Positions 3,081-63,431 of a stretch of 64,000 nt of DNA are shown piece after piece. Positions within the stretch are counted from its first letter, which is position 1; every line of letters starts with the position of its first letter. Source of the DNA: Escherichia phage ECO4. The DNA is taken from the sequence record NC_054911.1; one strand, 5' to 3'. A program made the translations under genes and the position numbers. Below the pieces are notes generated by a model. It saw only the letters and a list, made by a program, of their open reading frames with translations, did not search any database and had not been told where the DNA came from.

Positions 3081-4627
3081 GTAACAATACATATCAGCAC
3101 GTATCAAATGAATCAAAATATGTTAAATTCGATCCTACCGGATCGAATTTTCCTGACACTGTCACGACAGTGCAGTCTGCATTATCAAAAATAAGTAATA
3201 TCGGCGTAAATGGTATTCCTGATGCAACTATGGAAGTTAAAGGAATAGCAATGATTGCGTCAGAGCAAGAGGTTTTAGATGGAACTAATAATTCTAAAAT
3301 CGTTACACCCGCTACATTAGCAACAAGATTATTGTATCCAAATGCTACTGAAACTAAGTATGGTTTAACGCGCTATTCAACAAATGAAGAAACATTAGAA
3401 GGCTCAGATAATAATTCATCAATAACGCCGCAAAAACTGAAATACCATACTGACGATGTGTTCCAAAATAGATATTCGTCTGAGTCATCAAACGGGGTTA
3501 TTAAAATATCATCTACACCTGCAGCTTTAGCTGGAGTTGATGATACTACGGCAATGACTCCATTAAAAACGCAAAAACTTGCAATAAAATTAATTTCACA
3601 AATAGCTCCTTCCGAAGATACTGCATCAGAATCTGTGAGAGGTGTAGTTCAATTATCTACTGTTGCGCAAACTCGTCAAGGAACTCTCCGCGAAGGATAT
3701 GCAATTTCTCCGTATACCTTTATGAATTCTGTTGCAACACAAGAATATAAGGGTGTTATACGTTTAGGAACACAATCGGAAATTAACAGTAATTTGGGAG
3801 ATGTTGCTGTAACAGGTGAAACATTAAATGGTCGAGGAGCTACCGGTTCTATGCGTGGGGTAGTAAAATTAACGACGCAAGCCGGTATTGCCCCTGAAGG
3901 TGATAGCTCTGGAGCATTAGCATGGAACGCAGATGTAATTAATACTCGCGGTGGACAAACTATTAATGGTTCTTTAAATTTAGATCATTTAACAGCAAAT
4001 GGAATTTGGTCACGCGGCGGAATGTGGAAAAATGGCGATCAACCTGTTGCCACTGAAAGATATGCGTCCGAAAGGGTTCCAGTTGGAACTATTATGATGT
4101 TTGCTGGAGATTCAGCTCCTCCTGGTTGGATTATGTGCCATGGTGGAACTGTGTCAGGAGATCAATATCCTGATTATAGAAACACAGTTGGAACGAGATT
4201 TGGTGGCGATTGGAATAATCCTGGCATTCCTGATATGCGAGGTCTTTTCGTCAGAGGAGCTGGTACTGGTGGTCATATTTTAAATCAACGAGGGCAAGAT
4301 GGTTACGGGAAGGATAGACTTGGTGTAGGATGTGACGGAATGCATGTTGGCGGGGTTCAAGCACAACAGATGTCATACCATAAACATGCTGGCGGTTGGG
4401 GAGAATACCAAAGACATGAAGCTCCATTTGGCGCGTCCGTTTATCAAGGATATCTTGGAACTAGAAAATATGCCGACTGGGATAATGCTTCATACTTCAC
4501 TAATGATGGATTTGAATTAGGTGGACCGAGAGATGCCCTTGGTACACTTAATCGTGAAGGATTAATTGGTTATGAAACTAGACCATGGAATATATCATTA
4601 AACTATATTATTAAAATTCATTACTAA
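3077..4627 (+). CDS. 12: short tail fibre protein gp12
   Basis: 516-aa [17 protein letters not shown]-terminus and C-terminal NISLNYIIK motif typical of T4 gp12; synteny. Confidence 0.93.
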
Positions 4628-4636
4628 GGATTACAA

Positions 4637-6094
4637 ATGATTGAATTAAAAGATTTACCTTTTGTTGATAGCGTTCCTGGCGAAGGTCAGGAACGTATTT
4701 CATGGATTAAAAATGGTGAAGAAATACTAGGAGCTAGTACTAAGTATGGAAACGATGGATCAATGAATAGACCAACTGTGTCCGTATTTAAAAATGTTGA
4801 GGTTCTTGATGAAAATATAGGAATTCTTAAAACTGCCGTTGAAACATCACAGGAAGATATTAAAACAATTCAAGGCATTTTGGATGTATCTGGAGATATC
4901 GAAGCACTATCACAGATTAGCGTTAATAAAAATGACATATCAAATTTAAAGACGCTTACGAATGAACACACTGATATATTAAATGGTACAAATACTACGG
5001 TTGATAATATTCTTTCTGATATTGGTCCATTTAATTCGCAAGCAAATTCAGTTTATAGAACGATTAGAAATGATTTGTTATGGATTAAAAGGGAATTAGG
5101 ACAATATGCTGGGCAAGATATTAATGGTCTTCCTGTTGTAGGAAATAGCAGCACGGGGATGAAGCACCGTATCATTAATAATACAGATGCTATAACTTCC
5201 CAAGGAATACGTCTAAGTGATTTGGAAGAAAAATTTATTGAATCTGATGTAGGTTCACTGACAATTGAAGTCGGAAATCTTAGACAAGAACTTGGACAAA
5301 GACCATCTTCATTTAGTGAAAGCATATATTCACGTGTGCATAATTTAGATCAATCACAGATTAATCTTAGTTCCGAAATTAAATCTATCAAAACTTCTAT
5401 TGGATATCCAGGAAATACTTCAATAATCACAGATGTCAATGTCAACAGTCAAGAAATTTCAGCTTTAAATGATGAACTAAATAAAAGTGGCGGCGTTAAA
5501 CAGCGATTAACTGTTATTGAAACATCGATTGGTTCAGATGATATTCCTTCTAGTATTAAAGGTCAAATTAAAGATAATACCACTTCTATTGAATCTTTAA
5601 ATGGAATTGTAGGTGAAAACACCTCGTCCGGTTTAAGAGCTAACGTTTCATGGCTAAATCAGATAGTTGGAACTGATTCTAGCGGAGGTCAACCTTCTCC
5701 TCCGGGGTCTCTTTTAAATAGAGTTTCAACTGTTGAAACCTCTGTTAATAGACTTAACAATGATGTTCAAAACTTACAGGTTGAAATTGGTAATAACAAT
5801 TCCGGAATTAAAGGGCAAGTTGTAACACTAAATAAATTAGTAAATGGAACAAATCCGAATGGTTCAACTGTCGAAGAACGCGGATTGACTAATTCAATAA
5901 AAGCTAATGAGACTAACATTTCTTCAATTAATCAAGAGATTCGTAGTATTAAAGGTAATGTGTCCTCATTGCAGAGGGATGTCCAGACTTTACAAGAAGC
6001 TGGTTATATTCCTGAAGCTCCAAAAGATGGTCAAGCTTACGTTCGTAAAGACGGCGAATGGGTATTGCTTTCTACCTTTTTATCACCAGCATAA
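4637..6094 (+). CDS. wac: fibritin (whisker antigen control) with C-terminal foldon
   Basis: 485-aa ORF; coiled-coil-like repeats; C-terminal [27 protein letters not shown] is the fibritin foldon. Confidence 0.95.
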
Positions 6095-54010: not shown

Positions 54011-56274
54011 TACAATTTACACGCTGCACAATCTTCAGCTTTAGGTGTTTCTAATTCATAGTCATCTGTACCTGACCCATCACGAGTGTTATGATAGTAG
54101 AGGTTTTTTCCGCCAAAGTACCAGAAGTAAAGTAGATCGTCAAGCATTACTGACATTGGTACTTTACCTTTCTCAAATACCGCAGGGTCATAATATGTAT
54201 TCGCTGAAGCTGATTGACATACCCATTTCAGCATAATAGCTACTTGCGTAAGATAAGGCTTATTACCTTTCTTAGCTAATTTCCACGTATAATCATACAG
54301 GTCTATGTTATGCTCAATATTGGGCACGACTTGATTAAAGGAGCCCTCTTTTGATTCTTTAACAGAGACTGGTCCACGTGGAGGCTCGATACCGTTTGTA
54401 CTGTTAGAAACTTGGGAAGATGACTCACATGGCATAAGTGCTGATAATGTGCTATTACGGATGCCAAAGAGCTTAAGGTCTTCCCGCAGCGACGACCAGT
54501 CACAAACGTATTTTGGAGCTGCGATTTGGTCAATCTTTTTATTGTACCAGTCGATAGGTAATTCGCCTCGAGACCAACGAGTGTCTGAATAATATTCGCA
54601 AGGTCCTTTTTCTTTGGCGAGTTTAATGGATGCTTTAATGAGTCCATACTGTAATCTCTCAAATAGTTCATGTGTTAAATCGTTAGCATCTTCATAAGAA
54701 GCAAAGTTACTTGCCAACCAAGCTGCATAGTTAGTAACACCTACACCGAGGTTACGACGCTTTTTAGCTTTTTCTGCTTCAGGAACTGGGTATCCTTGGT
54801 AATCCAAAAGATTATCAAGAGCACGAACCTGGACTTCTGCCAATTCATTAATTTTATCTTGGTCTTGCCAGTCAAAATTATCTAATACGAATGCAGAGAG
54901 AGTACACAATCCAATTTCAGCATCAGGACTATTCACATCATTTGTTGGAATAGCAATTTCACAGCACAAGTTACTCTGACGAATAGGTGCCTTTTCACGA
55001 ATAAACGGAGTATAGTTATTCGTATTATCAATGAACTGTACATAAATCCTTGCTGTTCCTGAGCGTTCAGTCATGAGCAATTCAAATAGTTCACGAGCTT
55101 TAATACGCTTTTTACGAATATTAGGGTCTTTTTCTGCGGCTTCATACAATTCACGGAAACGGTCTTGGTCTTTAAAATAAGAATAATAAAGCTCTCCGCC
55201 CATTTCATGGGGACTGAACAAAGTAATGTAATCGTTCTTTCCAAAACGTTCCATCATCAAATCATTCAGTTGAACACCATAATCCATATGACGAATGCGG
55301 TTTTCTTCTACGCCTTTGTTATTTTTCAAAACAAGAAGATTTTCAACTTCCAAATGCCAAATAGGATAATAAGCAGTAGCAGCGCCGCCACGAATTCCAC
55401 CCTGTGAGCATGATTTAACAGCAGTCTGAAAATGTTTCCAAAAAGGAATAACACCAGTATGGCGTACTTCACCCATGCCAATCTTAGAACCTTCAGCACG
55501 AATCATACCAACGTTAATACCAATTCCAGCACGTTTAGAGATATATTCAACAATTGAAGCGGAAGCCTTATTGATAGACTTTAATGAATCACCTGCCTCA
55601 ATAACAACGCATGAACTAAACTGCCGAGTTGGAGTACGGCAACCAGCCATAATAGGAGTTGGTAATGAAATCTGTCGAGTAGATACTGCTTCATAAAAAC
55701 GGATAACGTGTTTTAATCTATCAACAGGTTCATCTTGATGCAATGCCATTCCAATAGTCATAAATGCAAACTGTGGAGTTTCATAAATTTGACCAGTGGT
55801 TTTATCTTTAACTAGATATTTTTCTTTTAATTGCATCGCCCCGGAATAAGTAAATTCCATATCCCGCTCGTGCTTAATTTTTGATTCTAAAAATGTAATT
55901 TCTTCTGCAGAATATTTTGACAACAATTCAGGGTCGTATTTACCTTCATTTACACAGTAAGAAATATGGTCAATAAATGAACGTGGTTCATACTGCCCAT
56001 AAACATGCTTACGAAGAGCAAACATTAAACAGCGTGCAGCTACATATTGATAATCAGGTTCTTCAACCGAAATAGAATTCGCAGCGGCCTTAATGACAAT
56101 AGTCTGAATATCATCAGTTGTCATTCCATCACGGAGATAAGATTTAATATTTTCATATAATTCATAAGGATCTACTGATGTTCCTTCAGCTGCCCAAGAT
56201 AAAACTTTAATAATTTTTTGTGGGTCAAAGCTCTGAGAAACACCACTACTTTTGATAACATTAATTAATTGCAT
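54010..56274 (-). CDS. nrdA: ribonucleotide reductase large subunit NrdA
   Basis: 754-aa ORF with class I RNR catalytic motifs (NLCCEIA, C-terminal redox cysteines CAACKL); T4 NrdA is 754 aa. Confidence 0.97.
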   Translation of the reverse strand: MQLINVIKSSGVSQSFDPQKIIKVLSWAAEGTSVDPYELYENIKSYLRDGMTTDDIQTIVIKAAANSISVEEPDYQYVAARCLMFALRKHVYGQYEPRSFIDHISYCVNEGKYDPELLSKYSAEEITFLESKIKHERDMEFTYSGAMQLKEKYLVKDKTTGQIYETPQFAFMTIGMALHQDEPVDRLKHVIRFYEAVSTRQISLPTPIMAGCRTPTRQFSSCVVIEAGDSLKSINKASASIVEYISKRAGIGINVGMIRAEGSKIGMGEVRHTGVIPFWKHFQTAVKSCSQGGIRGGAATAYYPIWHLEVENLLVLKNNKGVEENRIRHMDYGVQLNDLMMERFGKNDYITLFSPHEMGGELYYSYFKDQDRFRELYEAAEKDPNIRKKRIKARELFELLMTERSGTARIYVQFIDNTNNYTPFIREKAPIRQSNLCCEIAIPTNDVNSPDAEIGLCTLSAFVLDNFDWQDQDKINELAEVQVRALDNLLDYQGYPVPEAEKAKKRRNLGVGVTNYAAWLASNFASYEDANDLTHELFERLQYGLIKASIKLAKEKGPCEYYSDTRWSRGELPIDWYNKKIDQIAAPKYVCDWSSLREDLKLFGIRNSTLSALMPCESSSQVSNSTNGIEPPRGPVSVKESKEGSFNQVVPNIEHNIDLYDYTWKLAKKGNKPYLTQVAIMLKWVCQSASANTYYDPAVFEKGKVPMSVMLDDLLYFWYFGGKNLYYHNTRDGSGTDDYELETPKAEDCAACKL

Positions 56275-56591
56275 AAGTCCTCAACTTGAAAATCGTCTTT
56301 AAACAATCGGTTAACTATATGAGCTATTATATCACCATGACACGGCTTTGGTTTACATGTGCATCCTAGCCTCATTCCACGTAAAGGCTCTAAATGTGCT
56401 TTAGTTATTTCTCCGGATTTAATTCGACGTATAAAATCTTTTTTGAATAATTCAATGGCAGCCTCCCGGCTGCCAGCATCTTTACCGACGTAATTTCCCC
56501 AAAATGTACCACGGTGAATATTAACATCAAAGTCGGATTTATATTTATTCACTACTCGGCATATACGGCCTGCGCGGTTGTAAGTGTTCAT
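56265..56591 (-). CDS. nrdA.1: hypothetical protein
   Basis: 108-aa ORF between td and nrdA; symbol by synteny. Confidence 0.7.
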
Positions 56592-56820
56592 ATTGTTCTT
56601 CCGTTAAAACAGTAATATCGTAGTAACAGTCAGAAGAAGTTTTAACTGTGGAAATTTTATTATCAAAATACTCACGAGTCATTTTATGAGTATAATATTT
56701 TTTACCATAAATGATAATAGGCTGATTTGGTCCTGGAACTTCTAGCTCACTTGGATTAGGAAGTGTAAAAAGAACTGCACCAGAAGTATCTTTAAATCGT
56801 AAAATCATATATCCTCGCAA
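56545..56820 (-). CDS. nrdA.2: hypothetical protein
   Basis: 91-aa ORF; symbol by synteny. Confidence 0.65.
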
Positions 56821-56831
56821 TTAAATTGAAA

Positions 56832-57143
56832 TTACACCGCCATCTTTCCTTTAATTGGCGGGTGAGATACATAGTTGTTAAGAACAAAATTATGCGGCTT
56901 TGCGAATTGACTCAACCAAAATACCTGTGATTCTGTACCCCATTCATCGAATTCATCTGGAAATTTTAATTGCAATTCGCATAAATCCATAGGTTCACGA
57001 CGCAAAATTTCTTTACATTGTTCTACGTGATTCATATAGATATGAGTATTACCACCAGAAAATATCAAATCTCCCGGAATAAGATTACACATCTTAGCTA
57101 CAATATGAACTAACGTAGCATATGATGCAATATTAAATGGAAG
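56832..57143 (-). CDS. td: thymidylate synthase, exon 2 (103 codons)
   Basis: Begins LPFNIASYA (conserved TS motif) immediately after the intron 3' end; joins exon 1 in frame to give 286 aa. Confidence 0.93.
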   Translation of the reverse strand, partial: LPFNIASYATLVHIVAKMCNLIPGDLIFSGGNTHIYMNHVEQCKEILRREPMDLCELQLKFPDEFDEWGTESQVFWLSQFAKPHNFVLNNYVSHPPIKGKMAV

Positions 57144-58159
57144 CATTATGTTCAGATAAGGTCGTTAATCTTACCCCGGAATTATATCCAGCTGCATGTC
57201 ACCATGCAGATCAGACTATATCTCCAACTTGTTAAAGCAAGTTGTCTATCGTTTCGAGTCACTTGACCCTACTCCCCAAAGGGATAGTCGTTAGGCATTT
57301 ATGTAGAACCAATTCCATTTATCAGATTTTACACGATAAGTAACTAATCCAGACGAAATTTTAAAATGTCTAGCTGCATCTGCTGCACAATCAAAAATAA
57401 CCCCATCACATGAAATCTTTTTAATATTACTAGGCTTTTTACCTTTCATCTTTTCTGATATTTTAGATTTAGTTATGTCTGAATGCTTATGATTAAAGAA
57501 TGAATTATTTTCACCTGAACGATTTCTGCATTTACTACAAGTATAAGCAGAAGTTTGTATGCGAACACCGCACTTACAAAACTTATGGGTTTCTGGATTC
57601 CAACGCCCGTTTTTACTTCCGGGTTTACTGTAAAGAGCTTTCCGACCATCAGGTCCAAGTTTAAGCATCTTAGCTTTAACAGTTTCAGAACGTTTCTTAA
57701 TAATTTCTTCTTTTAATGGATGCGTAGAACATGTATCACCAAACGTTGCATCAGCAATATTGTATCCATTAATTTTAGAATTAAGCTCTTTAATCCAAAA
57801 ATTTTCTCGTTCAATAATCAAATCTTTCTCATATGGAATTTCTTCCAAAATAGAACATTCAAACACATTACCATGTTTGTTAAAAGACCTCTGAAGCTTT
57901 ATAGAAGAATGGCATCCTTTTTCTAAATCTTTAAAATGCCTCTTCCATCTCTTTTCAAAATCTTTAGCACTTCCTACATATACTTTATTGTTTAAAGTAT
58001 TTTTAATCTGATAAATTCCGCTTTTCATAAATACCTCTTTAAATATAGAAGTATTTATTAAAGGGCAGTCCTACAATTTAGCACGGGATTGTCTACTAGA
58101 GAGGTTCCCCGTTTAGATAGATTACAAGTATAAGTCACCTTATACTCAGGCCTCAATTA
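57144..58159 (-). ncRNA. group I self-splicing intron of td (1016 nt)
   Basis: 5' end TAATTGAGGCCTGAGTATAAGGTGAC directly after exon-1 ...TTGGGT, 3' end ...GAACATAATG before exon 2; matches the T4 td intron I recall; contains the I-TevI ORF. Confidence 0.92.
57291..58028 (-). CDS. I-TevI: intron-encoded GIY-YIG homing endonuclease I-TevI
   Basis: 245-aa ORF, MKSGIYQIKNTLNNKVYVGSAKDFEKRWKRH, recognised as I-TevI; located inside the td intron. Confidence 0.96.
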   Translation of the reverse strand: MKSGIYQIKNTLNNKVYVGSAKDFEKRWKRHFKDLEKGCHSSIKLQRSFNKHGNVFECSILEEIPYEKDLIIERENFWIKELNSKINGYNIADATFGDTCSTHPLKEEIIKKRSETVKAKMLKLGPDGRKALYSKPGSKNGRWNPETHKFCKCGVRIQTSAYTCSKCRNRSGENNSFFNHKHSDITKSKISEKMKGKKPSNIKKISCDGVIFDCAADAARHFKISSGLVTYRVKSDKWNWFYINA

Positions 58160-58708
58160 ACCCAAGAAAACATCTACTGATCGTTGATACCACTGCAAAT
58201 CCAAATAGCCATTACGCACATTAAACTGATAGAACATATGACAGGGCGGTAATGCCATTTGATTGATTTCAGCTGGATTCCATGCAGAAACAATTTGACG
58301 CCTATCATTTGGCAGTTTTTTAATACGATCAATAACTTCTATAATTTGATCTACACCGCCAAAATCACGCCACTGTTTTCCATAAATTGGACCAAGTTCA
58401 CCGCTATGGTATCCTAAATCTTTTGCTTGATTTTCGTAATTTTCATCCCAGACTGTTTTGCCTTGAATTAATGAATCGTGCTGAATTAATCGTAAATCAT
58501 TGACATTTGTGCTTCCTGATAAAAACCAAAGCAGCTCAGCAATGCAAGCTTTCCAGGCGAGCTTCTTAGTTGTTACCGCAGGAAAACCTTTAGTTAAATC
58601 CCAGCGTAATTTAGTACCAAACAAAGCAATTGTTCCTGTGCCTGTTCGGTCATCGGTTTCATAGCCATTTTCAAAAATGTCTTTAATTAAATCTTGGTAT
58701 TGTTTCAT
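58160..58708 (-). CDS. td: thymidylate synthase, exon 1 (183 codons)
   Basis: MKQYQDLIKDIFENGYETDDRTGTGT...PPCHMFYQF (TS active-site region); ends ...VDVFLG at the 5' splice site. Confidence 0.95.
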
Positions 58709-58753
58709 TTAGTACCTTATATAAATTATAATACATTTTATGAAGCTAAATAA

Positions 58754-59101
58754 TCAATACGGTTTAGCATCAAATTTTCTCTCAATTTCAGGCGTGAAAT
58801 ATAATTCTTTACCGCGTTTGGAAAAGCGACCAATAATATGATAATTATTCTCATCAAACGTGATATTACCAATATCCATAGCTTTCAACCAAATATCGAT
58901 ATTTCTATCCAGCTTTATGTCAAAATTCCAATACGGAGAACTATTACCGAAAATACTACAAGCGGATTCAGTGAAACAACTGCTATAAATCTTGTCTTTA
59001 GGAACTACTAATTGATAGACACCTTTAATAAACTGAGGACCCTGCCACTTTGGCTGTTTCTCATCTTTTTCTAATAGAATAGGGTAATAATTAAAATTCA
59101 T
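58754..59101 (-). CDS. ORFan (115 aa) inserted between frd and td
   Basis: ATG 59101 lies 19 nt after the frd stop; no recognisable motif; flanked upstream by GC-rich CGCGCGGCGG and downstream by a promoter-like TATTATAAT and SD before td. Confidence 0.65.
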   Translation of the reverse strand: MNFNYYPILLEKDEKQPKWQGPQFIKGVYQLVVPKDKIYSSCFTESACSIFGNSSPYWNFDIKLDRNIDIWLKAMDIGNITFDENNYHIIGRFSKRGKELYFTPEIERKFDAKPY

Positions 59102-59120
59102 ATTTCCGCCGCGCGTTATT

Positions 59121-59943
<823 letters not shown>

Positions 59944-59947
<4 letters not shown>

Positions 59948-60303
59948 ATTACCTCCCACTGAAAGGGGCCAGAAGCAAATCCGCTATCTTTAATCATTTT
60001 AACTAAAGTTACCATTCCTCTGTTAACTGCTTGCGAGATTTCATCAAAAACTTCATCACTATCACCATAAAGATCGCTAAAAAGTTCTAACACGTTCTTC
60101 TGAACTTTTAATTTACAGCCAACAAATTCGCCTACAGTAAATTCGTTTCCGCCAACTCCAGCGTAAAACGTAATTACACCAGTTAATGGTCTTTCACTAG
60201 AACATAGGTCGTGTGATAAATTAATATAAGCCGTCCCGGGTGCAGTTTTAAGTTGGCAACGAATACTTACTCGAGCAATTCCAGCTACACGAATGTCAGA
60301 CAT
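59944..60303 (-). CDS. hypothetical protein
   Basis: 119-aa ORF; ATGA stop/start overlap with downstream gene; may correspond to T4 frd.2. Confidence 0.7.
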
Positions 60304-60313
60304 ATTATTTTCC

Positions 60314-60556
60314 TCAAATAGACTTTTTCACAATTTTCCAATCAGCTTTAAACTGCTCGACGTCAGAATGGTAAATCCAAAATCCTGCGCTTTCTCCATC
60401 CTCATAAAGAGGGCATCCATCACATTCATCTTCCCATCCCATATCGCGTAAAAGGTGTTCAGCTTTTTCAACAAGTTCAGAATCTTTACCGATGATATTA
60501 AAATACCATTTACCTCTAACTTCTGAATCTTTGATACTCTGACGTTGTAATCTCAT
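60314..60556 (-). CDS. hypothetical protein
   Basis: 80-aa ORF with AAGGAG SD; may correspond to T4 frd.3. Confidence 0.7.
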   Translation of the reverse strand: MRLQRQSIKDSEVRGKWYFNIIGKDSELVEKAEHLLRDMGWEDECDGCPLYEDGESAGFWIYHSDVEQFKADWKIVKKSI

Positions 60557-60566
60557 TTTATTCTCC

Positions 60567-60635
60567 TTAGCAAGCTTTAATCAAAAGATATAAACAGACC
60601 AACATAACTGCTGCCATAATATAAGGTGCGAACAT
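60567..60635 (-). CDS. 22-aa hydrophobic micropeptide (MFAPYIMAAVMLVCLYLLIKAC), not in ORF track
   Basis: My own translation; GGAGAAAAGAAAATG SD-start, stop TAA overlaps the SD of the next gene; early promoter 60666-60695 upstream; single predicted TM helix. Confidence 0.45.
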   Translation of the reverse strand: MFAPYIMAAVMLVCLYLLIKAC

Positions 60636-60665
60636 TTTCTTTTCTCCATTAGTTTTGATAGGGTA

Positions 60666-60695
60666 ATAGTATCACACTACTACCCCGTTGTAAAC
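60666..60695 (-). promoter_or_regulatory. T4 early-type promoter upstream of the micropeptide / small-ORF operon
   Basis: GTTTAC, 18 nt, TACTAT on the coding strand. Confidence 0.45.
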
Positions 60696-60697
60696 AA

Positions 60698-60958
60698 TTA
60701 TTTTTGAATTTTATCGAGCCACTTACCAAGCTTAATCATTTCTTTAGTAGCCTTTTCCATACTTCTGAACTTAACCAATAGAGGATAGGTATCGACACCC
60801 ATAACTAAACTGGTTACAAGACTGTGTTCACCCACAAGCCATAACGAATACGTTTGAATATCGAGTCCGTAATTTCTGTCTTTATGGACCCGTACACCCA
60901 TCACTTCAAATTTCTCACTAGCTTTTTCTACCGCATCCAGGAAATCATCTTTAGTCAT
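60698..60958 (-). CDS. hypothetical protein
   Basis: 86-aa ORF from ATG 60958 (MTKDDFLDAVEK), TAATATG coupling to upstream ORF. Confidence 0.6.
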   Translation of the reverse strand: MTKDDFLDAVEKASEKFEVMGVRVHKDRNYGLDIQTYSLWLVGEHSLVTSLVMGVDTYPLLVKFRSMEKATKEMIKLGKWLDKIQK

Positions 60959-60959
60959 A

Positions 60960-61346
60960 TTAGGCCTTAAAAGTTTTTCGCAAAAGTTCAATGATTTCAT
61001 CTACATTGTTTTCGTCAACAATGCAGTGAATTTTTGTTACGCCAGAAACTATACCTTCATTAGCGGATTGAGGCTTTTCTAAAGTTACCTCAGTAAAGTA
61101 TTTGAATTCTTCAGGGTAAATCTCAAAATACGTCTCAAGTGGGCCACCCGCCATGTATTCAGTGCCGTCTTCCATAGTTACACGTACCACACAGTCACCA
61201 GCACAATCATCACTTTCCATTTCATCTACAACAAAACTAGGTCCGTGCTTCTCTATTAAATTTAGCATCATTACATTGCAACGGCACTCGTTAGCAAAGT
61301 CATTTTTAAATAAAGGGTTAATGATATAAGTTTTTCCAACTTCCAC
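60960..61346 (-). CDS. hypothetical acidic protein; probable GTG start
   Basis: 128-aa ORF; GAGGA SD 7 nt before GTG 61346; first in-frame ATG is 25 codons in. Confidence 0.55.
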   Translation of the reverse strand: MEVGKTYIINPLFKNDFANECRCNVMMLNLIEKHGPSFVVDEMESDDCAGDCVVRVTMEDGTEYMAGGPLETYFEIYPEEFKYFTEVTLEKPQSANEGIVSGVTKIHCIVDENNVDEIIELLRKTFKA

Positions 61347-61392
61347 TTTGATTTCCTCATTTTAACGGGGCTATCAAATAGCCCCTTGATAA

Positions 61393-61623
61393 TTATTGTT
61401 CAATCAGTCCCATGTAAAATTCTGCGTCTTCAGAATCCATGCCATCGCAATATTCATTAGCCATAAAGCGGGTAAGGTCTTCAAGAGGACCTTCAATGAC
61501 AATAGAAAAATTGCAATAATTGGGATCATCATGAATACTTGTGATACTAAGTTCAGGATAACGATTACGAATAATCTCTTCAATATATTCAAAATCAACG
61601 ATGTCAATATCAACTTTAGCCAT
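61393..61623 (-). CDS. hypothetical acidic protein
   Basis: 76-aa ORF from ATG 61623 ([16 protein letters not shown]) with AAAGAGGAAAA SD; track extension to 61749 would span the gene 32 terminator. Confidence 0.6.
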
Positions 61624-61666
61624 ATTATTTTCCTCTTTAATCATCAGCAGTATTGCCGATAGTTGT

Positions 61667-61696
61667 ATAGTACCATAAAGCCTTATGTTTGTAAAC
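61667..61696 (-). promoter_or_regulatory. T4 early-type promoter downstream of the gene 32 terminator
   Basis: GTTTAC, 18 nt, TACTAT; precedes SD and ATG 61623. Confidence 0.45.
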
Positions 61697-61719
61697 CGTT
61701 TTGTGAAAAAATTTTTGAA

Positions 61720-61746
61720 ATAAAAAAAGGGGACCTCTAGGGTCCC
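61720..61746 (-). terminator. rho-independent terminator after gene 32
   Basis: Coding-strand GGGGACC-CTAG-AGGTCCCC followed by TTTTTTTATTTC. Confidence 0.8.
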
Positions 61747-61769
61747 CAATTAATTAGTAATATAATCTA

Positions 61770-62678
61770 TTAAAGGTCATTCAAAAGGTCATCCAGGTCC
61801 GTGTCATCAGCACTAGATGAACTGCCAGAGCTTGAGCTCATAAAATCATCTTCAGTTTTTGTATTGAAGTCATCAACATTGAATGCATCCAAATCATCAG
61901 CAACTTTATCAGCTTTCTTAGCAGCAGTTGCAGCGGCACCGCCAATCACAGCAGTTCCCATAACTTGACCGAATTTAGTATTCAGTTCTTCAAACGATTT
62001 GAATTTATCTTTAGAAGTCATTTCAGAAAGGTCAACCATTTGTTCGAACAGTTCTTTCTGGAAAGATTCATCGTCAATGTTTGGAATCGCAGATTGATTC
62101 AGGAATTTAGATTCGTCGTAGTTACTAAAACCAGAAACTTGTTTAACTTTCAGTACAAAGTTAGCACCTTCCCACGGACAAGTTACATCAACCGGAGTTT
62201 CACCCATTTCAACATCAACTGCAATCATTGCATTGATTTTATCCCAGATTTTCTTACCGAAACGGTATTTAAATACTTTACCTTCATTTTCTGGAGCAGC
62301 TGGGTCTTTTACTACAAGAATGTTAGCCCAGTAAGAAGTTTTACGTTTAACAAGACCGTACTCTTTATTGTCAGTGTTGTATAAATCATTTTTATTGATG
62401 TACTGACATACTGGGCAAGAATCGTAATCACCGTGGGTAGATGAACAGTTTTCAATATACCATTTACCATTTTTCTTGAAACCGTGATTTACAAGAATTG
62501 TGAATGGTGCTTGTTCATCATTTTTAGACGGAAGAAAACGAATTACTGCTTGACCGTTACCTGCATTGTCGAGTTTCAGTTTCCACTCGCCTTTATCTTC
62601 AGAAGAAAAACCACCTTTATTTCCAGCCAGTTTAGCCATTTGTGCAGCGAGTTCAGCAGTAGATTTACGTTTAAACAT
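61770..62678 (-). CDS. 32: single-stranded DNA-binding protein gp32
   Basis: 301-aa [40 protein letters not shown]; acidic C-terminal tail [12 protein letters not shown]. Confidence 0.98.
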
Positions 62679-62738
62679 TTTTATTTCCTTTTTAATTTAA
62701 TTAACAGTTGGTGCTATGACGATGTATGACCTCATAGC
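62679..62738 (-). promoter_or_regulatory. gene 32 5' leader: autoregulatory translational operator with pseudoknot-forming element
   Basis: Leader GUGCUAUGAGGUCAUACAUCGUCAUAGCAC followed by unstructured A/U-rich tract to the SD and ATG; matches the T4 gene 32 operator as I recall it. Confidence 0.7.
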
Positions 62739-62761
62739 TGGTCAGTGAGATAATTATAATC

Positions 62762-62769
62762 TATTTATA
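62762..62769 (-). promoter_or_regulatory. T4 late promoter TATAAATA for gene 32
   Basis: Exact TATAAATA on the coding strand immediately after gp59 stop. Confidence 0.55.
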
Positions 62770-62777
62770 ATAAGCAA

Positions 62778-63431
62778 TTAATACTTACAAGATTTCACAG
62801 TTTCAATAAAAACTTTTTTAGCTTCCTGTGAATCGATATTTAAAATTTTTCTATAAGCCTTTAACTTTATAGAATAATTATTCCAGACTAAATTATCAGT
62901 CTGTTCATCATGTTTATCGATTATATTTAAAAACGAATCAAGCAAGATAAACGTCTCAAACGAAATTATATTCGATTGCAGAAGTTTAAAAATATAACTT
63001 GACTGAACTTTTGGATTATACTCAAAGATTTCTTTAAAAGCAGAAACTTCAACTTTTTTACTAAAATAATAAATGTTGCGAATATCTTCTTCAAACTTAA
63101 ATTTAATTTGCTTTAAGCGTCCGATATATTCACGATAAAACACAAGTGCATCAGCGTCAGAGATGTCGCCAATCCAAGCGTCTTGGTTAGCAACCAAATT
63201 ACTTATAAAGATTAAAGCAAGTTCCTTTAATTTATATTTTTCTGATAACTTCTGGAAAAAATACTTATCCCTTCGCTTTTGATAAGCGGCATCAGACACC
63301 CGCATGCACCAATTATACTTAATAACATCATACTTTCCATTCATATGTTGTTTTATCATTAAGTATAATTTATAAACTGATTTACCATCAATGTATCTTT
63401 CACCACCAGCAGGCATGCGGAGTTTAATCAT
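62778..63431 (-). CDS. 59: helicase loader gp59
   Basis: 217-aa ORF (T4 gp59 is 217 aa), directly upstream of gene 32. Confidence 0.93.
   Translation of the reverse strand: MIKLRMPAGGERYIDGKSVYKLYLMIKQHMNGKYDVIKYNWCMRVSDAAYQKRRDKYFFQKLSEKYKLKELALIFISNLVANQDAWIGDISDADALVFYREYIGRLKQIKFKFEEDIRNIYYFSKKVEVSAFKEIFEYNPKVQSSYIFKLLQSNIISFETFILLDSFLNIIDKHDEQTDNLVWNNYSIKLKAYRKILNIDSQEAKKVFIETVKSCKY

Follow-up and report, generated by a model that had tools for sequence, protein, structure and literature searches.

Organization of the frd-32 Interval

We analyzed a 64,000-nt stretch of the genome of Escherichia phage ECO4 (NC_054911.1), referred to here as the window. Between frd (59121-59702) and gene 32 (61770-62678), the window contains six coupled small open reading frames (ORFs) and, among them, a 22-codon ORF at 60567-60635 that encodes MFAPYIMAAVMLVCLYLLIKAC. 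This micro-ORF, which is not annotated in the records of CAM-21, AR1, RB51, or T4, is the main subject of this report, and we argue that it is probably a genuine gene. The genes and signals of the interval are on the minus strand unless a plus sign is given. Positions 59700-61770 are 99.8% identical to Escherichia virus CAM-21, a T4-like coliphage, and match 660 T-even phage records, chiefly from Tequatrovirus.

The frd-32 interval is a hyperplastic early-gene region of T-even phages and comprises two early transcription units. The first unit would run from a T4 early-type promoter at 61695-61667 (TTTACA-N17-TACTAT, with TG before the -10 box) through frd.3 (61393-61623; 76 aa), a stem-loop (61359-61393, core 61367-61385), frd.2 (60960-61346; 128 aa, GTG start), and an 86-aa ORF (60698-60958). 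The second unit would run from another early promoter at 60694-60666, which has the same two boxes, the same spacing, and TG before the -10 box, through the micro-ORF, frd.1 (60314-60556; 80 aa), to which the micro-ORF is coupled, a 119-aa ORF (59944-60303), an 81-aa ORF (59702-59947), and frd. The six larger ORFs, each of which has a Shine-Dalgarno sequence (SD), overlap by 1 or 4 nt or lie 1-10 nt apart. The intrinsic terminator of gene 32 (61729-61747; GGGGACC-loop-GGTCCCC followed by TTTTTTT) isolates the cluster from gene 32 transcription. An earlier note on this DNA had described the six coupled ORFs, the 22-codon ORF with its own SD, two early-type promoters, and a GC hairpin at 61367-61385, and we found all of these features.

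PeSL (promoter-early stem-loop) elements consist of a promoter, a stem-loop between or overlapping its boxes, and then an SD and ATG (Arbiol et al., 2010, PMC2839356). Through them, small ORFs are inserted, deleted, and exchanged in the hyperplastic regions of T4-type phages (Arbiol et al., 2010, PMC2839356; Comeau et al., 2014, PMC4122927). Both promoters of the interval fit the PeSL early-promoter consensus of T4 and PST, TTTACW-N17-TAYWAT (PMC4122927). The 60694-60666 promoter is of the PeSL type: an 11-12 bp hairpin, GGGTAGTAGTG-TGA-TACTATTACCC, overlaps its -10 box (-15.7 kcal/mol for the folded 61-nt stretch, a value that includes a short outer helix), and phage SfPhi01 carries compensatory changes in the stem. 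At the frd.3 promoter, the hairpin is weak and limited to 5 bp. Two other early promoters of the window (47214-47186 and 43757-43730, both minus strand) have 12-13 bp hairpins over their -10 boxes, with other stem sequences and a like layout, which indicates that the PeSL architecture is recurrent in this genome.

The hairpin between frd.3 and frd.2 has the arms GGGGCTAT and ATAGCCCC and would read as RNA GGGGCUAU-UUG-AUAGCCCC; T4 has a shorter stem of another sequence at this position. We considered and rejected a terminator function for the hairpin, because no U-tract follows it and a terminator scan did not call it. In AR1, a partial tandem duplication (ttatcaagggg) adjoins the stem-loop (extracted locus ~3160-3200).

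A 22-Codon ORF Specifies a Candidate Membrane Peptide

The micro-ORF has a GGAG SD at 60644-60647, 8 nt 5' of its ATG, and its TAA (60567-60569) abuts the GGAG of frd.1 (60563-60566), so that its stop meets the SD of the next gene, as the earlier note had noticed. The predicted product is strongly hydrophobic, also in agreement with that note: its grand average of hydropathy (GRAVY) is 2.05, residues 2-19 are 18 consecutive uncharged residues, and the sequence then ends in K-A-C. This unbroken hydrophobic stretch is long enough to span a bilayer. The window contains 323 ATG-initiated ORFs of 18-40 aa, 12 of them with an SD, and the micro-ORF ranks second in hydrophobicity among the 323 and first among the 12. 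A 22-codon ORF by itself would not be significant, and the evidence that appears to exceed chance is that from comparison across genomes.

In T4, the micro-ORF is present base for base (AF158101, 146018-146083), in the unannotated "intergenic" gap between frd.2 and frd.1. When we searched 50,697 phage records with the 22-aa peptide using tblastn, all 199 matched records (199/199) contained the full-length sequence; it was identical in 160, carried one substitution in 35, and was more divergent in 4. Among the tblastn matches listed, none had an annotated coding sequence beneath the match (0/60). An exact look-up of six variants of the peptide among ~15 billion proteins returned one annotated copy, ACG-C40_0237a (YP_006986794.1), a 22-aa hypothetical protein of Escherichia phage vB_EcoM_ACG-C40. 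This is the same micro-ORF with the substitution F2L; its entry carries no functional note, and, in contrast to it, the ORF is left without annotation in the records of T4, T6, RB27, AR1, and CAM-21. The micro-ORF occurs in three genera: Tequatrovirus, Mosigvirus (ESh15), and Dhakavirus (MN04, UP19, and Esco_phi_B-01). A scan with a degenerate pattern found 2 identical copies in IMG/VR and, in JGI metagenomes, 2 identical copies and 4 chance matches, and thus added no diversity.

The Micro-ORF Lies within an 87-bp Facultative Cassette

Phages RB51, ESh32, SfPhi01, and Ac3 lack exactly positions 60568-60654 of the window. These 87 bp make up a facultative cassette that comprises a leader, the GGAG SD, and the 22-codon ORF. 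In the genomes without the cassette, the promoter runs straight into the SD of frd.1 (...ccctatcaact|tgaGGAGaataaaATG), and at the same junction the window reads ...ccctatcaaaactaatGGAGaaaagaaaATG[ORF]TAAGGAGaataaaATG. The cassette is carried by ~195 of the roughly 660 related records (~30%), T4, T6, RB27, RB32, and AR1 included; for T2, the match is confined to the part of the query that holds the promoter.

In the three Dhakavirus genomes (MN04, UP19, and Esco_phi_B-01), the leader, the SD, the ORF, and the TAAGGAG are found at another place in the genome, in the motB-cef interval, immediately behind an early promoter. JS98, JS10, IME281, and other members of Dhakavirus have the motB-cef locus without the unit, and the difference is a clean indel immediately after ...ccctatcaa. 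The Dhakavirus copies retain the resident promoter, and the DNA that they share with the window begins at the conserved -10/+1 region. The -10 box in the cassette-bearing Dhakavirus locus is TAAGAT versus TACTAT (UP19, extracted locus 1440-1500, versus JS98), and the first codons of cef in UP19 and MN04 are altered (MTTKIT versus MAKVTV), which suggests that the insertion remodeled both junctions.

These boundaries point to a cassette that would be gained or lost between two sites, TTACCCTATCAA in the conserved -10/+1 region of an early promoter and GGAGAATAAAATG at the SD-ATG of the gene that follows. Clean gain and loss between these two sites would explain the two positions of the ORF, ahead of frd.1 in Tequatrovirus and Mosigvirus and ahead of cef in the three Dhakavirus genomes. 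Judged by layout and indel boundaries, the micro-ORF behaves like a very small PeSL cargo. It shares with PeSL cassettes the early promoter TTTACW-N17-TAYWAT, a stem-loop over the -10 box, an AT-rich upstream tract, and a 3' SD and start codon, as well as a location in a hyperplastic region beside clean small-ORF indels and the occurrence of one cargo behind different resident promoters. It differs in that the cargo is only 22 codons long, far smaller than the ORFans described with PeSLs, and in that its flanks are one full PeSL and SD-ATG microhomology rather than two PeSLs. The likeness is one of sequence layout; PeSLs are further characterized by terminator or attenuator activity of the stem-loop and by mini-circles that arise from PeSL-PeSL recombination. 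The unit also resembles the lambdoid morons (discussed in PMC2839356), as a small accessory unit that sits between resident genes and leaves them undisturbed. Unlike a moron, however, it brings neither promoter nor terminator and slots in behind a resident early promoter.

Codon Pattern of the Micro-ORF

We compared the micro-ORF in eight haplotypes from the three genera. The ATG, the TAA, the length of 22 codons, and the SD are kept in all eight, whereas the leader just 5' of the ORF has a 6-8 nt indel in Dhakavirus. The 18 variable sites are distributed 5/2/11 over codon positions 1/2/3, an enrichment at position 3 (P = 0.014). In the frame of the micro-ORF, the distinct codon changes comprise 8 synonymous and 9 non-synonymous ones, with no gain of a stop codon; if the changes were random, ~21% would be expected to be synonymous. 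All five codon changes that fall within the last nine codons (CLYLLIKAC) are synonymous. Neither of the other two frames performs as well as that of the micro-ORF. We regard this comparative evidence for a gene as moderate but consistent.

Two other readings were considered and rejected. One was an alternative 22-codon frame at 60581-60649 (MEKRKCSH...): the indel in the Dhakavirus leader shifts it relative to the rest of the ORF, and in both frames other than the one that begins MFAPY the substitutions are mostly non-synonymous, and one of these frames gains stops. Conservation through RNA structure was rejected because no Rfam family was matched in a search of 59000-63000 and because the mRNA is unusually unstructured: from the likely start site to frd.1, it is less structured than all of 200 shuffled sequences (z = +2.7). 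RNA folding therefore does not account for the conservation of the leader and micro-ORF, and the SD is predicted to be accessible.

Interpretation of the Micro-ORF

The reading that we favor, and consider probable, is that the micro-ORF is a genuine gene missing from the T4 annotation, that it specifies a facultative early membrane micropeptide, and that it is moved by PeSL-type recombination. From the comparisons above, the ORF is real, it is both conserved and portable, and it has almost no annotation, in T4 as elsewhere; it is a plausible new gene for a small membrane protein.

Several observations weigh against this reading. The coding signal comes from eight haplotypes only, with P values of ~0.01. 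Thirteen codons have T at the second position; the code is built such that an NTN codon altered at position 1 or 3 still specifies a hydrophobic residue, and conservative replacements therefore overstate selection. About 70% of the related genomes, including T2, are without the cassette, which is thus dispensable. The range is narrow: only T-even genomes with enterobacterial hosts carry the micro-ORF, apart from the two IMG/VR and two JGI copies. The micropeptide had no match in Pfam, PHROGs, NCBIfam, PADLOC, or the sequences of the PDB, and none in 5,426 E. coli genomes or in the PLSDB plasmids (the last two results led us to reject a host or plasmid origin). A search of a paper library found no T4 ribosome-profiling or proteomic data, and tryptic proteomics would hardly be able to detect the peptide. 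Finally, in the CRISPRi-ART data, guide RNA gRNA7 for frd.1 (T4 146004-146034) scored 0.11, "Not fit" (PMC11879866, supplement). This guide covers the final codons of the micro-ORF together with its stop, and it is an unintended and weak test of it under laboratory conditions.

Some of these points would suit a chance frame in leader DNA that was spread by PeSL-type recombination and conserved through recent descent and hitch-hiking. ORFs of 22 codons are common in AT-rich DNA, as the 323 small ORFs of the window illustrate; the peptide is identical in 160 of the 199 copies, so that most of its conservation is uninformative; the cassette is patchy and dispensable; and hardly any annotator or gene caller has called the ORF. 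Such a frame would, however, not be expected to skew substitutions toward codon position 3 or to make all five codon changes of the C-terminal half synonymous, and the same substitutions break the alternative frames. Furthermore, the 69 nt have stayed free of indels and stops in three genera beside a leader that has indels, and the SD is kept despite an altered context in ESh15 and MN04. We consider a chance frame rather unlikely.

A different explanation grants that the ORF is translated but makes the peptide itself functionless: as a cis-acting upstream ORF or leader peptide, its translation, or stalling at its stop codon, would tune frd.1 (or cef). Arrest peptides of this kind, such as TnaC and ErmCL, are known. 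The TAA does lie within the TAAGGAG of the next gene at both loci, the ORF always moves with a promoter-proximal leader, and the invariant C terminus, CLYLLIKAC, is the part that would be inside the ribosome tunnel at termination. Yet in relatives that lack the cassette, frd.1 or cef is expressed directly from the same promoter by way of an equivalent SD, frd.1 and cef are unrelated to each other, and the mRNA is unstructured, so that coupling is not required to open the SD. The peptide also contains no known arrest motif, and 18 uncharged residues with a GRAVY of 2.05 are typical of membrane peptides and not of known arrest peptides. An upstream-ORF or arrest function is, in our judgment, quite unlikely.

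If the micro-ORF is a gene for a membrane micropeptide, as we favor, its expression and fate can be outlined. The micro-ORF is the first cistron of a unit with a PeSL-type early promoter, and with an optimally spaced GGAG SD on unstructured mRNA, its translation would be expected within the first few minutes after infection. GGAG SD sites of T4 early mRNAs are targets of the RegB nuclease, and cleavage by RegB would limit expression of the micro-ORF to the early period. A product of 22 residues would be too short for co-translational targeting, as it could not exit the ribosome tunnel before termination; once released, it would insert post-translationally into the inner membrane as a single helix, for which the single C-terminal lysine is a weak predictor of an N-out/C-in orientation. 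The gene that follows is frd.1 at one locus and cef at the other, and it is expressed directly in phages that lack the cassette, which suggests that the peptide probably acts alone and in trans, in an accessory role. As a best guess, the peptide would have its target in the host inner membrane, binding or perturbing a component there in an accessory and condition-dependent function.

Among bacteria, small proteins of the inner membrane and type I toxin peptides, ~20-50 aa long, include Ibs, ShoB, TisB, and AcrZ. To judge by its sequence alone, the micropeptide is similar to these in size and in having a single hydrophobic helix and a short charged tail. It differs from them in that it has no sequence similarity to any family and is accompanied by no convincing antisense RNA partner. 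A weak antisense promoter-like match (TAAACA-18-CATAAT, with TG) lies inside the micro-ORF at 60591-60620 (+); the region contains 17 promoter-like matches versus 13.7 +/- 3.8 in shuffled sequences, a number not above chance, so this match is no evidence for an antisense RNA.

More tentatively, and as a possibility that we hold well short of even, T4 and ~200 relatives may express an overlooked 22-aa inner-membrane peptide that is made right after infection and directed at the host, and whose 87-bp micro-cassette would move between unrelated promoters. A host-directed role of this sort could be, for example, modulation of a membrane protein, exclusion, or counter-defense. On this possibility, the unit would be the smallest cargo so far known for PeSL-type shuffling, and its 22-aa product would be shorter than any annotated T4 ORF, the minimum being 26 aa (Table 1 of PMC4122927).

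If the favored reading is correct, the best-studied phage would gain a gene in its reference annotation, and the micro-ORF would provide a concrete example of a gene of fewer than 30 codons that standard gene callers overlook. It would also mean that PeSL-type recombination moves units as small as 87 bp among loci and genera. Genomes of the RB51 and JS98 types would serve as natural, precise, isogenic-like deletions of the cassette.

The Larger ORFs Belong to Known Families

The six larger ORFs are all known, annotated families without an assigned function, and the cluster itself adds nothing new. Each ORF clears a Pfam gathering cut-off or matches its PHROG family at E <= 1e-36. The frd.1 product scores 115.6 bits against DUF5417 (cut-off 23.9; also phrog_1254), that of frd.2 scores 115.5 bits against FRD2 (PF03197; cut-off 29; phrog_622), and that of frd.3 scores 129.6 bits against Phage_FRD3 (PF05798; cut-off 28.1; phrog_1764). 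The 119-aa ORF belongs to DUF7247 (phrog_3566) and is AR1_245-like, the 81-aa ORF belongs to phrog_3183 and is AR1_244-like, and the 86-aa ORF belongs to phrog_4423 and is like AR1_247 and RB51ncORF239c. With membership in DUF5417, FRD2, Phage_FRD3, DUF7247, and three PHROG families, the ORFs do have recognizable motifs, of which the earlier note had recognized none. That note had also called the products small and acidic, which applies to five of the six (pI 4.0-5.0; for example, 4.9 for frd.1, 4.4 for frd.2, and 4.05 for frd.3) but not to the 86-aa product, which is slightly basic (pI 7.95).

The records of CAM-21, AR1, and RB51 annotate the same six families, although the frd-proximal ORF of RB51 is a different, longer version. 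Gene order is identical here to that of frd.1, frd.2, and frd.3 in T4, of AR1_244, AR1_245, and AR1_247 in AR1, and of ncORF237c and ncORF239c in RB51. Only in CAM-21 did we find the exact combination of the six ORFs and the micro-ORF cassette complete; AR1 and RB27 share the six annotated ORFs as well as the micro-ORF but differ in the frd.2 allele.

Searches for function gave few leads. PADLOC and NCBIfam searches with the larger ORFs returned only sub-threshold noise, and a PDB sequence search with the 86-aa ORF, frd.1, and frd.3 gave no match. A structure model of the frd.3 product (predicted local distance difference test score of 93) has a generic ferredoxin-like fold (Z <= 7.2) that offers no functional lead. 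A literature search found no paper on the function of DUF5417, DUF7247, or Frd.3. For T4 Frd.2, AlphaFold models predict an N-terminal LSm-like five-stranded beta fold, and a T4 frd.2 amber mutant is viable and plates normally (Kim et al., 2025, PMC12152347). In the CRISPRi-ART study, frd.2 was the sole T4 gene without known function to be scored "Fit," marginally (0.83, P = 0.027), and frd.1 and frd.3 were scored "Not fit" (PMC11879866). The frd.3 mRNA of T4 is among the abundant NAD-capped RNAs (bioRxiv 2024.04.04.588121).

Comparison with the T4 Locus

We compared window positions 59000-61800 with the T4 locus by BLAST. The aligned blocks are 59116-59718, 60246-60708, 60967-61049, and 61331-61800. 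T4 is without 59719-60245, which holds most of the 81-aa and 119-aa ORFs, and without 60709-60966, which holds the 86-aa ORF; the remaining unaligned stretch, 61050-61330, is not an insertion but a divergent allele of frd.2. Of the proteins shared with T4, that of frd.1 is the same at 79 of 80 residues and that of frd.3 at 66 of 76.

The earlier note had proposed that 60567-61623 may be additional content relative to T4. T4 does have only three annotated genes between frd and gene 32 (frd.1, frd.2, and frd.3), but frd.2, frd.3, and the micro-ORF of the segment are present in T4, and the 86-aa ORF is the sole gene within it that T4 lacks; both the stretch 59719-60245 and frd.1 lie outside the segment. 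An alignment with T4 and its relatives had been proposed in that note as a check; relatives such as CAM-21 and AR1 share the six annotated ORFs, and T4 itself holds the ORF for the micropeptide. That the whole of 60567-61623 is T4-absent accessory DNA with new host-takeover or anti-defense genes is almost certainly wrong: the three annotated frd genes of T4 and its missing 86-aa ORF (60698-60958) are what speaks for it, whereas T4 has the rest of the segment, the records of AR1, RB51, and CAM-21 annotate the whole ORF set, and PADLOC, NCBIfam, and PDB sequence and fold searches gave no anti-defense signal.

Between frd.1 and frd, T4 has a 16-codon stump of the 119-aa DUF7247 gene (MYVIEIIQVSIRFQLK* versus MSDIRVAGIARVSIRCQLKT...) and has also kept the last codons of the 81-aa gene. 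The stumps are at positions 4692-4762 of the locus extracted from NC_000866 and correspond to 59703-59718 joined to 60246-60313 of the window. That T4 keeps stumps of both genes indicates that its state is a deletion and not ancestral, and T4 lost the 81-aa and 119-aa genes through one deletion. Relative to the window, T4 has lost three of the six ORFs in two deletions.

The frd.2 product differs from T4 Frd.2 over its first ~95 residues, and its gene has a GTG start. The two proteins are identical at 58 of 131 aligned columns, and their last 33 residues are the same except for the final one (K in T4, A here); the frd.2 coding sequence also aligns with T4 over its first ~16 nt. As the gene is T4-like at its ends and strongly diverged in its body, a recombination breakpoint is indicated within the gene, near 61050, and the frd.2 of the window reads as a mosaic allele.

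Neighboring Regions of the Window

The gap between gene 32 and gene 59 (62679-62777) is ~99 nt long and, unlike that of T4, is without the segG homing-endonuclease gene. On the other side of the interval, the gap between td and frd (58712-59115) holds a further ORF that is absent from T4 (58754-59101; 115 aa, RB32ORF229c-like). RB51 annotates the counterpart of this ORF as "flanked by 9 bp repeat," and in T4 td and frd overlap directly. The td region (56000-58711) aligns with T4 td, including its intron, at 95.7% identity, and the first td ORF ends after 183 codons, as expected for exon 1. In CAM-21, by contrast, td is annotated as a single 861-nt coding sequence.

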